Of a stretch of 26,172 bases of DNA, positions 9,582 to 14,431 are shown in pieces. Origin of the DNA: Candidatus Aenigmatarchaeota archaeon (GTDB lineage: Archaea; Aenigmatarchaeota; Aenigmatarchaeia; CG10238-14; SCSR01); NCBI GenBank assembly GCA_039000165.1, contig JAWBTW010000010.1, positions 1 to 26,172 on the forward strand, given 5' to 3'. Numbering within the stretch: the first letter of the stretch is position 1; every line of letters starts with the position of its first letter. The notes beneath the pieces are model-generated. The model was given only the letters and a program-made list of their open reading frames with translations, did not search any database and had not been told where the DNA came from. The position numbers were made by a program, and so were the translations under genes.

Positions 9582-10841
9582 ATGAGAGAAAAACCTACTG
9601 TAATAGCTCCTGTAAAAGGAAAAGGTACTAGGCTTTATCCGCTTACTTTAGAAGACTCTAAATCTCTTATAGGAATAGCCAACCAACCTACTTTAGAAAG
9701 GATATTCGAAAACCTAGCTTTCTACGGTTGTAGAAACTTTTGGATAATAGGCGAATATGAACTTTACTTCTACTTCAGAAGAGGTGAAAGCTTTTCAAAA
9801 AGGCTTGACTTAAAGCCAGAAGCTACGTTTAACTATTCTACCGAAGAAGATTTTGGAAATGCGGACGGAACAAGAAGACTTTTAGAAAAGGAAGATATAG
9901 AAGGAAACGTCCTCATAATAGGTGGGGACAATTTAACTGACATAAATGTCGAGCAAATGCTCAAGTTTCATGAAACTAACGATTCAGATTTTACTGTGGC
10001 ACTTGTTGAAGTTAAAGATGTTACAAAGTATGGAATAGCTAGGTTGGAAGATAACAGAATTGTTGAATTTGTAGAAAAACCTAAGCAAGAAGAAGCACCT
10101 TCTAACCTTGGAAGCATGTTTTGTTACTTAGGGAAAGCCAAAGTTCTTAGAGAATTTTTAAAAAAGAATAAAGAGCTTACAGATTTCGGTTCCCAAGTGA
10201 TACCAAAAATGGTTAAAGAATGTAGAGTTTATGGATACATTCACAAAGGCTATTGGAACGATATAGGGAACCCAGAAACTTTACTTCAAGCTTCTCTTGA
10301 CGTTTTAAATGGAAAAGTTGGCAAAATTGGAGAAAAAATTCATTATTCGAGCAAAAATAAAATTGGAAAAAACGTAGAAATGGAAAACGTGCTTATAGGC
10401 GCAAACGTAAGAATTGGGAATAACGTTAAACTGAAGAACGTTTGTATAGAGGACAATTGTGTGATAGAAGATGGAGCTGAGATAGAAAATTCTGTGCTCT
10501 ATTTTGCTTCAAGAGTCGGTGAAAAAACTAGAGTGAGAAAATCCATAATTGGAAGGTTTGCTTATACAGGAAAAAGAAGTGAAGTAGGAGGTTATAATAT
10601 AGATAAGGTTTCAGTGGTAGGGAATAACGTAAAGATGGGAGACGAATGGATAATATGGGAGGGAGAGCTTTTAGCGAGCTATTCCCCTAGGAATATGAGA
10701 AAAATAAAAAGTGCAACTTTAAACAATCAAGATTTGTACAAAATTGTTAATGTAGATAATGAGATTATTTTTTTTGTCAATAGAAAAACTCTCTATGAAG
10801 ATTATAAAGGAGTGCCTCCACCTGTTTTCAAAAGAGTTTAG
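9582..10841 (+). CDS. NDP-sugar pyrophosphorylase (GlgC/Mpg1-like) with left-handed beta-helix
   Basis: GKGTRLYPLT, GD, FVEKP, DFGSQVIP and YWNDIG motifs followed by hexapeptide repeats. Confidence 0.88.
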   Translation: MREKPTVIAPVKGKGTRLYPLTLEDSKSLIGIANQPTLERIFENLAFYGCRNFWIIGEYELYFYFRRGESFSKRLDLKPEATFNYSTEEDFGNADGTRRLLEKEDIEGNVLIIGGDNLTDINVEQMLKFHETNDSDFTVALVEVKDVTKYGIARLEDNRIVEFVEKPKQEEAPSNLGSMFCYLGKAKVLREFLKKNKELTDFGSQVIPKMVKECRVYGYIHKGYWNDIGNPETLLQASLDVLNGKVGKIGEKIHYSSKNKIGKNVEMENVLIGANVRIGNNVKLKNVCIEDNCVIEDGAEIENSVLYFASRVGEKTRVRKSIIGRFAYTGKRSEVGGYNIDKVSVVGNNVKMGDEWIIWEGELLASYSPRNMRKIKSATLNNQDLYKIVNVDNEIIFFVNRKTLYEDYKGVPPPVFKRV

Positions 10842-12049
10842 CCAAGCTTATACCTTAAAAAAGCTCCTATTCCACCTAATTCTTTAAATTGCGCGCCTTC
10901 GTTGCTTTCTGTCGAGATAAACTCAACTTTGCTTCCAAGACTCTTTGCTTTCTCGCTTAAAGTTTCTACCAGTTCTTCCACACTTTCAACGCTCATAATT
11001 TGTTTACATTTTTCACAATATTGACTTTCAGCTTTATTCTTCGGTAAATCTTTTTCTTGTGTTAAGTTACATTTGTTGCACTTGAGCTTGACATGAACGA
11101 AGTCAAAACCTTCTGAGATTAACAAAGTTTCAACTGCCCCAATTTCCAAAGCTTTTAAAGTTTCTTTAAAGCCGTAAGTGACGTTTCCTCCTTTTTGTAA
11201 CTCAGAAAAAAACTTCTCCATTATTTCTTTTTCTTTCATGATAGAAGCCTTTTCAAGCAGGTCTTCTGACCTGTTGACAAGTTCTCTTAGACCATACTCC
11301 CCTGTATAGCTCGTATCCTTTATCCCCAAAATTTTTTTCCTGACTTCATGATGCAAATAATTCCCCTGAGCAAAAGCTTCTTTTGTTGGTCCTGGACCAC
11401 CGATTAAAACCCCCTTTAACTCAGGTTCTTGTAAGAAAAGATTTGAAGCGATTTCTCCAACCTTGGTGAAAAATTCGTTCAAAGCATCTTCCCTTATTCT
11501 ATCATAACGTCTTTGCGACATTCCTCCTTTCACGCTCTTTGATGGTACAGTAGATTCTAACTTTTTTACTTCTTCTACGGCTTTACCTTTAAGCAAACCT
11601 ATGCTAGCTTCGCTAGCATCTAAAACTATTAAACCATATACCTCTCTTTCTCTTAACATTTCTTTTAATGGGTTAAGAATGAAGTTTTGATCGCAGCGAT
11701 AAATTTTTGTTGATAGCTTTTCGGGTGGTTCTAAACTCCAAATTCTTATATCAGAAATTCCGGGATCAGGAGAAACATTTCCACAAAAAACTACTAAACC
11801 ATTTTCAGGGGTTGTTCTAAACATTCTCAAGTGCTGGATTATTTTTTCCAACGCACCCATTACATTTTTTCTTACGGTTTTGTCCTTAACGTTTTGCGCT
11901 AAGCTATACTCTTCCCTCAGCATGTTAATAACTTCTTGCAAGTTTGAGCCTGATGGGATGTAAACACTAACTAACTCTGTATGTCTCCCCCTTATGTTTT
12001 CCAACTCTTTTATAATCTTCTTTAGTTTAAGCAGTTTTTCCTCTTCCAT
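10838..12049 (-). CDS. prf1: Peptide chain release factor aRF1 with variant motifs
   Basis: GRHTELVSVYIP, YRCDQNF, GGPGPTK, Zn minidomain (CNKC..CEKC) and LGGIGAFLRY; start is ATG 12049 or GTG 12058. Confidence 0.93.
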   Translation of the reverse strand: MEEEKLLKLKKIIKELENIRGRHTELVSVYIPSGSNLQEVINMLREEYSLAQNVKDKTVRKNVMGALEKIIQHLRMFRTTPENGLVVFCGNVSPDPGISDIRIWSLEPPEKLSTKIYRCDQNFILNPLKEMLREREVYGLIVLDASEASIGLLKGKAVEEVKKLESTVPSKSVKGGMSQRRYDRIREDALNEFFTKVGEIASNLFLQEPELKGVLIGGPGPTKEAFAQGNYLHHEVRKKILGIKDTSYTGEYGLRELVNRSEDLLEKASIMKEKEIMEKFFSELQKGGNVTYGFKETLKALEIGAVETLLISEGFDFVHVKLKCNKCNLTQEKDLPKNKAESQYCEKCKQIMSVESVEELVETLSEKAKSLGSKVEFISTESNEGAQFKELGGIGAFLRYKLG

Positions 12050-12063
12050 TCTAACCACAGAAG

Positions 12064-14385
12064 TTATAGTATGTTGTGCATAGCTTTTAAATCTTTCTCG
12101 AAAATCCTTAGTTCTTCTGGTATCCCTACTTTTATTGCTTCTTTTAATGAAACTCTTTTTTTCTTTTTTTCCTCCCAGACACTTGAATTAAACTCTACCA
12201 ACCTTTTAGTTAGTTTTGTTAATTCTTTTTTCCATTTTGGTTTCGGAAAAGTTTCTAGATGGATGCTTTTTTTAGAATAAAGTTCTCTCCAAATATAGTC
12301 TGTGATAAAAGGTGAGATAGGCGCGAGAAGAAGGAGGATTGTTTTTAAACAAGTATGTAAAGTAAACCATGCTGCCTCTTTCTCTTCTTTAGTAAATCCT
12401 TTTCCGTAAGCTCTTGGTTTAACCATTTCAATATAATGCGAAGCAAATAAGTTCCAAACAAATTCTCTTATTTTGTTCGAGGGTATGAAAAAGTTAAAGT
12501 CTTGATATCCTTTTAAGCATTCCTCTATCAGGTTACTTAACTCCGCTAAAATCCATTCGTCAGTTTTGGTTAATTTTGCTTTTTTTGGTTCTGGAAAAGA
12601 AGAGATGAACCTTGCAACGTTCCAAAACTTTGTCAAGAATTTTGAGTTAGCGAATATTCTTTGCTCAGAACACCTAAAATCATAGCCTAGGCTTGCTTCT
12701 TGAGCCCCCCAGAACCTAAAAGCATCGCTTCCATATTTTTCAAGAATAGGTAGAGGATCAATAACATTTCCTTTACTTTTGCTCATTTTTTCTCCCTTTT
12801 CATCAACTCCATATCCAGAAATCCAAACATGTTCGAAAGGTAATTTTTTAGTTATCTGATAACATCTTAGCAAAGTATAAAATAACCATGTCCTAACTAT
12901 ATCCTTCCCTTGTGGTCTTATGGCATTAGGATAGGTTTTTCTGAAAAAGTTTTTGTCCTCTAAGAACTTTGAAATGAACAAGGGAGAAATGCTAGAATCA
13001 AACCAAGTATCAAAAGTTCTTTCTTCACCGACGAACTCTTCCCCTTTACAGAAAGAGCATCTTGAAAAAGGTGGTTTTTCTCTCCATGGCTTGTAGTATT
13101 TTCCGGCCTTTGGAATGTTAGGCTTACCACATTTCTTACAATACCAAATTGGAATTTCAGTTCCATAAAACCTTCTCCTTGAAATAGGCCAATCTGTGGT
13201 TATGGAGTTGATCCAGTTGAGCAGTATCATCTTATGCTCTTTGGGATGAAACTTTATTTTTTCTATTCCTTTTTTCAATTCTTCCAAGAAAGGAATTTGC
13301 TTGAGATAGTATTCCTTCATAGGAATTATTTCTATAGGGGTTTTACTTCTATCGCACAGAGGAGTTCTGTGCCATATGTCTTCTATCTTTTTCACTAGTC
13401 CCATTTTTTGTAAATCTTCTATTATTCTTTTTCTTGCTTCTTCAATTTTTAGGCCAGCATATTTTCCTGCATTTTCTGTCATTTCGCCGTTTTCATTTAT
13501 GGCTATTATTTCCTTGAGCTTGAATTCCCTAAAAATTCTTACATCGCTTTGGTCTCCATAACTACAAACCATAGCGGCTCCTGTTCCAAAGTCGGGCTTC
13601 GCTTCTTTGCAAGGAATTATCGGAACTTCTTTTTCATAGATTGGAGTTATAGCATGCTTACCTTGTAAACTTTTATATCTTTCGTCTTCAGGATGGACTA
13701 TTATTGCCTGACAAGAACAAAGAAGTTCAGGTCTTGTCGTGGCAATAGTCAAATCTTTTCCTGTTTCTTTTACTTTAAAGTTTATATAAACAAGCTTGGT
13801 GGGCAGTTCTTCATACTCTATTTCAGCATCAGCTATAGTTGTTTTGCAATCTATGCAATAATTATTTGGCCTTGTGGCTTCATAGATTAAACCCTTGTTC
13901 CAGAGCCAGATGAAAGTTGTTTGGGTAAGTTTTCTGTATTCTTCGCTATCGGTGCGATAATAATTCTCAAAATCTCCGCTAATTCCAACCATTTTCATGA
14001 TTTTTATGAAAACTTTTTCAACATCATCTAAAGAATGTTTACACAACTCTATGAATTTTTCTCTTTCAACCTCATGCAATCTTATGTTGTATTTTTTTTC
14101 TGTGTAAAGTTCGACTGGTATACCATTCCTGTCAATCCCTATAGGAAAATAAACTTCAAAACCAAACATTCTTGCGGTTCTTGCTATCATATCTATCTGA
14201 GAATAATGAACAACAGCACCAATATGCCAAGGTAAGCCTGAAGGGTAAGGTGGAGGAGTGTCTATGGTAAAAATTTTTCCCTTTGTCTTTGTGCTTAAAG
14301 AAAAAATTTTTTCTTTTAACCATTCTTGCGAGATTTTTTCTTCTAGCTTTATGTCCCATCTTTTCTCTTTAAGTCTTGGCTCCAT
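12064..14385 (-). CDS. valS: Valine--tRNA ligase, archaeal type
   Basis: IDTPPPY, HIGA (HIGH variant), ATTRPEL editing motif, WPISRRR and KMSKSKGN; start ATG 14385 or GTG 14394. Confidence 0.96.
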   Translation of the reverse strand: MEPRLKEKRWDIKLEEKISQEWLKEKIFSLSTKTKGKIFTIDTPPPYPSGLPWHIGAVVHYSQIDMIARTARMFGFEVYFPIGIDRNGIPVELYTEKKYNIRLHEVEREKFIELCKHSLDDVEKVFIKIMKMVGISGDFENYYRTDSEEYRKLTQTTFIWLWNKGLIYEATRPNNYCIDCKTTIADAEIEYEELPTKLVYINFKVKETGKDLTIATTRPELLCSCQAIIVHPEDERYKSLQGKHAITPIYEKEVPIIPCKEAKPDFGTGAAMVCSYGDQSDVRIFREFKLKEIIAINENGEMTENAGKYAGLKIEEARKRIIEDLQKMGLVKKIEDIWHRTPLCDRSKTPIEIIPMKEYYLKQIPFLEELKKGIEKIKFHPKEHKMILLNWINSITTDWPISRRRFYGTEIPIWYCKKCGKPNIPKAGKYYKPWREKPPFSRCSFCKGEEFVGEERTFDTWFDSSISPLFISKFLEDKNFFRKTYPNAIRPQGKDIVRTWLFYTLLRCYQITKKLPFEHVWISGYGVDEKGEKMSKSKGNVIDPLPILEKYGSDAFRFWGAQEASLGYDFRCSEQRIFANSKFLTKFWNVARFISSFPEPKKAKLTKTDEWILAELSNLIEECLKGYQDFNFFIPSNKIREFVWNLFASHYIEMVKPRAYGKGFTKEEKEAAWFTLHTCLKTILLLLAPISPFITDYIWRELYSKKSIHLETFPKPKWKKELTKLTKRLVEFNSSVWEEKKKKRVSLKEAIKVGIPEELRIFEKDLKAMHNIL

Positions 14386-14431
14386 TTTGCCCACTTCGTG
14401 ATAAATAAATTTTTTTCTTAAATAATTAAAT

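Follow-up and report, generated by a model that had tools for sequence, protein, structure and literature searches.

Can an archaeon terminate all of its translation with a class-I release factor that lacks the glutamine of the GGQ motif? The question is raised by a gene for the archaeal release factor aRF1 in a Candidatus Aenigmatarchaeota genome (assembly GCA_039000165.1), of which we analysed a stretch of 26,172 nucleotides (contig JAWBTW010000010.1, positions 1 to 26,172; hereafter, the window). The relevant sections of two accounts treat GGQ as invariant in class-I release factors of all three domains of life (PMC2613156, PMC5799190). The window aRF1 gene (10838–12058, minus strand) encodes 406 amino acids if translated from the GTG at 12058, or 403 from the ATG at 12049, as in the database entry P0001, and ends in TAA. 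At positions 11513–11527, the minus strand reads GGA GGA ATG TCG CAA, preceded by AAA and followed by AGA CGT TAT, i.e., K-G-G-M-S-Q-R-R-Y in translation. In the numbering of the 406-residue open reading frame (ORF), the loop comprises G178, G179, M180, S181 and Q182, with M180 at the place of the catalytic Gln and Q182 as the candidate for a displaced one; the tripeptide GGQ is absent from the entire translation.

A full-length aRF1 with a substituted catalytic loop

By profile, domain composition and fold, the window protein is an aRF1, but it lacks the GGQ motif that textbooks use for the catalytic centre. It contains the eRF1_1 (69.3 bits), eRF1_2 (139 bits) and eRF1_3 (103.9 bits) domains and scores 501.9 bits against TIGR03676, the NCBI equivalog profile for aRF1 (cut-off, 234.7), over profile positions 3–402 of 403, in line with the sequence-only reading, which had taken it for a full-length, three-domain aRF1 directly behind valS. 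That reading had also placed GGMSQ at the GGQ position, and this too is borne out: HMMER aligns GGMSQRRY without gaps with GGQSAQRF of PDB 4af1 and GGQSQRRY of PDB 3agk, and M180 thus occupies the exact Gln position. From an alignment of 66 sequences, AlphaFold2 gave a model (mean predicted local distance difference test score, 88.8) with the loop at residues 169–181 and a long helix from residue 182; in structure, it comes closest to aRF1 4af1 and to eRF1 chains, the template-modelling score to the eRF1 in 5lzt being 0.80.

A sequencing, assembly or annotation artefact, for which we found nothing in favour, is a negligible prospect. ATG differs from CAA and CAG at two or three positions, as anticipated from the sequence, and hundreds of independent assemblies agree on the substitution. 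The 120 closest proteins in an index of 5.8 billion have GGM, GGF or GGW throughout and GGQ in none; those with names are labelled Candidatus Aenigmatarchaeota, apart from one Bathyarchaeota. Nine orthologs show synonymous changes in the codons for both glycines, the Ser and the Gln while sharing the ATG; within the genus, the ratio of nonsynonymous to synonymous substitution rates (dN/dS) relative to the window gene is 0.03–0.06, with dS above 1. Logan contigs from three hot springs metagenome runs, which come from two studies, are identical over 11300–11750, at word depths of 87.6, 87 and 10.7, although these runs may be the source of the window DNA itself; no RNA dataset was present among the 8 runs examined.

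The only release factor of its genome

The genome to which the window belongs (783,037 bases, 25 contigs, 91.6% complete) yielded one aRF1 and one eRF1_2 domain in a genome-wide search, and no second eRF1_2 domain, GGQ aRF1, VLRF1-type protein or bacterial RF-1 domain was found in it. All three stop codons are in use: the 691 ORFs of at least 120 amino acids (standard code, 84% of the genome) end in TAA (360), TGA (188) or TAG (143). Given that the aRF1 is the only one, it must therefore serve all three. Across a sample of 61 genomes of the phylum, aRF1 proper is present in 60, one copy in each; one genome (G085) has only a Pelota-like match and another (G102) only fragments. None of the sampled genomes in which the Gln is replaced (hereafter, non-Gln) has a second, GGQ copy.

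The sequence-only reading had wavered between the main termination factor and a repurposed rescue factor. The former is the better description, with a sole aRF1 in the genome and a single aRF1 typical of the phylum sample. A dispensable or repurposed paralog would require that a canonical GGQ aRF1 be hidden in the unassembled 8% of the genome. Such a gap does exist, the genome being incomplete and in 25 contigs, but the one-copy pattern of the phylum and the score of the protein as an equivalog make this scenario extremely improbable. As judged from its sequence and genomic setting, the window aRF1 appears to be the single, selectively maintained class-I release factor of the organism, with predicted hydrolytic activity.

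Spread of non-Gln loops through the phylum

To place the substitution in context, 270 homologs were read, namely, the 120 closest and the 150 best representatives of clusters at 50% identity (the search returned 575 matches below 1e-30). Non-Gln loops slightly outnumber GGQ, 146 (124 GGM, 14 GGW, 5 GGF, 2 GGE and 1 GGS) versus 123, with one unreadable. Among the 61 phylum genomes, 34 have GGM, GGW, GGY or GGA and 25 have GGQ, the two unread ones being G085 and G102; to the 34, the window's family contributes all of its 15 genomes, families f4 and f5 all of their 7, and f10, f14, f15, f20 and f22 together the other 12. GGF occurs in one more relative (G041) outside this sample. The question whether the loop is lineage-wide, posed with the original observation, is thereby answered. 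In all 55 non-Gln rows of the alignment, the two glycines, the Ser and the Arg four residues on are invariant. The sole other near-fixed difference of the non-Gln clade is RY instead of RF, with Tyr five residues past the substituted position in 50 of the 55 rows and Phe in 21 of 24 and 14 of 19 GGQ rows; in the window, this is the RRYDR immediately after the loop (11498–11512, minus strand).

An IQ-TREE phylogeny (98 rows, LG+C20, loop columns removed, quick search) was rooted on P0267–P0269, which, by their loop, we take to be eukaryote-type eRF1. The 55 non-Gln rows, together with the GGQ protein of G082, form one clade, with a support of 93 in the Shimodaira-Hasegawa-like approximate likelihood ratio test. 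The deeper branches of this clade have Trp and the window's family has Met, and Trp is likely the earlier state, with Met in the window's family and Tyr, Phe and Ala as offshoots. Direct descent of the main clade from GGQSQ is not borne out, the GGQSQ proteins of G064, G073 and G088 falling in the sister GGQ group and not beside the clade; for two of the scattered cases, P0148/P0186 and P0163/P0198, such an ancestry is consistent with the tree. Single aRF1-like proteins show further loops: P0263 has GGESA, P0237 has GGESQ, and P0208 has GGS and SA separated by an intein. P0263 is named by NCBI as aRF-1 of a bacterial assembly, [Eubacterium] cellulosolvens.

Loss of the methyltransferase and recurrence in a second phylum

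In Haloferax volcanii, aRF1 is a demonstrated substrate of methylation by Mtq2-Trm112, and the pertinent part of the same source states that orthologues exist in all archaea (PMC6144793). In the window clade, the substrate Gln of this Mtq2(HemK2)-Trm112 system is missing, Mtq2 was not found and Trm112 is kept. Specifically, the check for HemK2 and Trm112 suggested from the sequence gave a Trm112 in the window genome (30.6 bits) and, for the Mtq2 profile TIGR00537, a best score of 27 bits against a cut-off of 87 that was exceeded in four of four archaeal control genomes. Seven Mtq2 proteins from GGQ relatives, used as tblastn queries against the window genome, gave at most 51 bits, and the best PrmC score there is 41 bits, the cut-off being 199. 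Both of the leading ORFs among the Mtq2 candidates proved to be other methyltransferases.

Across the phylum sample, Mtq2 exceeds the cut-off in 26 of 61 genomes, with a strong dependence on the loop: 23 of 25 GGQ genomes, both unread ones, and 1 of 34 non-Gln genomes. For that sole non-Gln match (G051), the score at the protein level is 85.7 bits and the motif is NGPT, as opposed to NPPY in the seven Mtq2 proteins that were read from GGQ genomes; another non-Gln genome (G063) has an 83-bit match that reads NLPF. Presuming that Mtq2 requires NPPY, we did not accept the near-cut-off matches of G063 and G051 as Mtq2 but regard them as HemK2-like paralogs, with NLPF, NGPT or NRPF instead of NPPY. 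As a separate observation, loci L133, L136 and L137 (of G063, G051 and G082, respectively) represent a HemK2-like methyltransferase family of about 230 amino acids that scores 69–83 bits on TIGR00537 and has NLPF, NRPF or NIPF in place of NPPY.

Non-Gln loops also arose elsewhere. A FastTree phylogeny of 201 rows requires 10 changes between Gln and non-Gln, and GGWSQ or GGFSQ singletons (P0201, P0148, P0163, P0179 and P0241) have GGQ proteins as their sisters (local supports, 67–100). One of them, P0179 (locus L145), belongs to the phylum of G104, which is Iainarchaeota according to one record title (Candidatus Iainarchaeum). The G104 genome has one aRF1 and one Pelota-like gene. We sampled 31 genomes of this phylum, eight of which gave no loop match. 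KHTKGGWSQ is present in five, none of which has Mtq2, and GGQ in 18, of which 15 have Mtq2, the remaining three being assemblies of 300–600 kilobases. With the Aenigmatarchaeota clade and the GGWSQ genomes of the second phylum, the pairing of a missing canonical Gln with a missing Mtq2 has thus arisen at least twice.

A glutamine two residues downstream

Among the 270 homologs, the residue two positions past the substituted one (+2) is Gln in 132 of 144 readable non-Gln proteins versus 22 of 122 GGQ proteins, and within the clade Gln is retained there in 49 of 55 rows. In 10 independent pairs drawn from the 201-row tree that differ in the canonical Gln, the +2 Gln goes with loss of the canonical one in about 6.3, the opposite way in none, and shows no difference in 3.7 (median p, 0.03). 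Both changes can be seen against the nearest sisters in P0179 (GGWSQ versus GGQSS) and P0201 (GGWSQ versus GGQSH). Moreover, GGxSQ is the loop motif of aVLRF-1 and acVLRF-1, relatives of Vms1/ANKZF1, as given in the part of Burroughs and Aravind (2019) devoted to these families (PMC6514570). Because the +2 Gln tracks canonical Gln loss in independent pairs and GGxSQ is the VLRF1 motif, the sequences support a compensating, putatively displaced Gln.

Comparison with known systems

The window protein shares with canonical aRF1 and eRF1 (TIGR03676; 4af1, 3agk, 5lzt) the three domains, YxCxxxF and the Gly-Gly loop before a long helix, and aligns over its full length with 4af1 (292 bits); its loop differs from that of 3agk, GGQSQRRY, at the Gln only. 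It departs from them in having Met for Gln (Trp, Tyr, Phe or Ala in its kin) and NVKD at the NIKS-type motif, and in the missing Mtq2. With VLRF1-type hydrolases, it has in common the GGxSQ loop, i.e., a Gln two residues past Gly-Gly-x with a small residue before it. However, these proteins, as portrayed in the relevant portion of PMC6514570, are rescue factors whose action involves no decoding of stop codons, whereas the decoding N domain (eRF1_1) is present in the window protein, and the true VLRF1-type proteins of its relatives are only about 250 amino acids long. Profile scores separate the two as well: the window protein scores 38.5 bits on acVLRF1 compared with 139 on eRF1_2, and 33.3 on NF041024, with a cut-off of 125. 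VLRF1-type proteins of relatives (L139–L143, in G021, G018, G031, G093 and G072) are about 233–326 amino acids long, score 63–86 bits on PF18859, and have GGSSA, GGYSQ, GGFSQ and GGQSA among their loops.

Pelota/Dom34 is likewise a three-domain paralog without GGQ but, in the sections of PMC2613156 that describe it, lacks the whole loop, NIKS and YxCxxxF; on the Pelota equivalog profile, the window protein reaches 87.9 bits, the cut-off being 177.65. The window genome encodes a short Pelota homolog of its own (L006 1501–2160, plus strand, i.e., G000:C4:30924-31583; 219 amino acids, 121 bits, below the cut-off) in which domain 1 is fused straight to domain 3, without the central domain. Full-length Pelota is present in none of 15 genomes of the window's family versus 31 of 61 in the phylum sample.

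Finally, laboratory substitutions of the Gln in RF1, RF2 and eRF1 affect the same residue but are engineered and mostly deleterious, whereas the change in the window clade is natural, fixed and clade-wide. Some of the engineered variants are said to retain partial activity. Yeast Q182E could not be propagated, according to the part of PMC12440015 that deals with this variant.

Mechanism and rival explanations

We favour, with a probability of about 0.65, a mechanism in which the sole release factor works with a hydrophobic residue in place of Gln, Mtq2 has been lost, and the downstream Gln takes part of the role. In the passages of Zeng and Jin (PMC5799190) that concern it, the Gln side chain has a packing role, methylation adds van der Waals contacts, and the water is held by a main-chain NH. 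Building on this description, we propose that residue 180 contributes its main-chain NH to holding the hydrolytic water, that a hydrophobic side chain (Trp or Met) fills the rRNA pocket where N5-methyl-Gln normally packs, and that Q182, which could supply a carbonyl, partly stands in for the side chain of the lost Gln. The two glycines would, as before, bring the loop into the peptidyl-transferase centre, and methylation would be unnecessary once the pocket is filled by a hydrophobic residue.

Several observations weigh against this mechanism or the history behind it. The displaced Gln, as the sequence-only reading had it, matches a published motif and tracks the loss, but the shift is not universal: Ala or Ser occupies +2 in 9 of 76 non-Gln rows, the clade saw at least four or five separate losses of the +2 Gln (G063; G067 with G075; G018; G027; G031), 6 of the 79 genomes read have Gln at neither position (GGMSA, GGMSS or GGWSA), and three genomes, G027, G067 and G075, yielded no aRF1 other than a Gln-free one of this kind. 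The support of 93 for the clade is not starred and comes from a quick search, and G082, with GGQSA and an intein, is nested inside. Two GGQ genomes of the phylum are without Mtq2 over the cut-off, G082 (79 bits, NPPY present) and G088 (32 bits), as are three of the second phylum, and the link is therefore not one-to-one; related genomes are not independent either, and the association with Mtq2 amounts to about two evolutionary events. All the genomes are incomplete metagenome-assembled genomes (MAGs), and release activity and ribosome binding of the window factor are predictions. The existence of GGQ genomes without Mtq2 (G088, G111 and G121), with no non-Gln genome having a bona fide Mtq2, hints that Mtq2 loss preceded Gln loss, a point weakened by MAG incompleteness.

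The Gln-free loops would fit catalysis that is independent of Gln altogether, with the backbone NH and the glycines acting, any bulky hydrophobic residue packing, and the +2 Gln being a historical passenger. That position 180 accepts M, W, Y, F and A fits this alternative, and modest rate effects of Gln substitutions in RF1 were reportedly seen by Shaw and Green (2007). So does the description cited above, in which the Gln packs and the water contact is partly through the main-chain NH (relevant passages of PMC5799190). Nevertheless, retention of the +2 Gln in nearly all clade rows, and its gain alongside canonical Gln loss in independent lineages with no pair in the opposite direction, speak against this alternative, which we regard as rather unlikely. 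Far less probable still is a factor without peptidyl-tRNA hydrolysis, one that decodes stops and recruits ABCE1 for splitting while another hydrolase frees the peptide, even though the canonical catalytic residue is gone and VLRF1-type proteins occur in some relatives (G018, G021, G031, G072 and G093). Were the loop dead, one would hardly expect its Gly-Gly, Ser and Arg to be invariant under strong purifying selection; the window genome offers neither a VLRF1-type protein nor a bacterial release-factor domain for the task; and Pelota, the natural non-hydrolytic paralog, has lost the loop entirely, as stated in the cited sections of PMC2613156.

A bolder proposition, which we put forward tentatively and would not bet on, is that the catalytic Gln is dispensable for life: after Mtq2 loss, Trp or Met would hard-wire the packing, the GGMSA, GGMSS and GGWSA members would terminate all translation Gln-free, through backbone and rRNA catalysis, and the switch would be a repeated one in DPANN. 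The ribosomal side was compared using 23S rRNA, for which 23 of 30 loci (9 GGQ and 14 non-Gln) were aligned, those of G024, G096, G006, G034, G091, G069 and G086 having been dropped for odd length or large inserts. In this rough MAFFT alignment, only 3 fixed differences separate GGQ from non-Gln, none of them in a conserved block. Three motifs taken to represent the E. coli peptidyl-transferase centre matched few or none of the archaeal 23S sequences. The 23S genes of the phylum (L103, G000:C8:296-3556; L104–L132) range from 2.8 to 6.7 kilobases, compared with a 2987-position model, that of the window genome being 3261 nucleotides long, which suggests frequent inserts or introns.

Other features of the locus and inteins in relatives

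The decoding motif YxCxxxF is intact in the window protein (YRCDQNF, 11681–11701, minus strand), with Y120, C122 and F126 invariant in alignment A1. By motif reading, NVKD stands at the NIKS stop-codon recognition place (11882–11893, minus strand). It is shared by the window's genus and G012, G031, G018 and G021, most other relatives having NIKS; family f4 has NVKS and f12 has NVKN, and the window genome still uses all three stops. According to the section of PMC2613156 on the NIKS motif, its S can be replaced by L, N or D in some cases. Domain 3 contains a CxxC...CxxC zinc-ribbon insert (11006–11080, minus strand), of which C327, C348 and C351 are conserved in A1. Upstream, on the same strand and 5 nucleotides from the aRF1 gene, lies valS, encoding valine--tRNA ligase (12064–14394; NF009687, 941.7 bits), and the two genes are probably co-transcribed.

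In 63 of the 270 homologs, an intein of 300–570 amino acids, starting with Cys and ending in HN, is inserted exactly between GGx and the next Ser, in GGQ, GGM, GGW and GGF hosts alike (for example, P0023, P0062, P0110, P0113 and P0115; loci L091 and L094–L100); the window gene has none. The single GGQSA sequence within the non-Gln clade (L099, G082:C16:86102-89813) is intein-bearing. Its intein is 42–43% identical to those of GGQ hosts versus 33–35% to those of GGW hosts, its flank RFERVREGM resembles GGQ lineages, and G082 keeps the NPPY Mtq2-like gene. Possibly, the GGQ of L099 results from extein co-conversion during intein homing, or else the old state was retained.

Implications

Searches of the full-text literature, exclusive of supplements and subscription journals, turned up neither an aRF1 proper without GGQ nor archaea without Mtq2. 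Annotation pipelines and motif screens that require GGQ would misjudge such proteins. In these archaea, the substrate residue and the enzyme that modifies it were lost together. The role of the Gln side chain and of its methylation is still debated, and a clade and an independent lineage that live on GGWSQ or GGMSQ without the methyltransferase provide natural variants for assessing backbone catalysis, packing and a displaced Gln.
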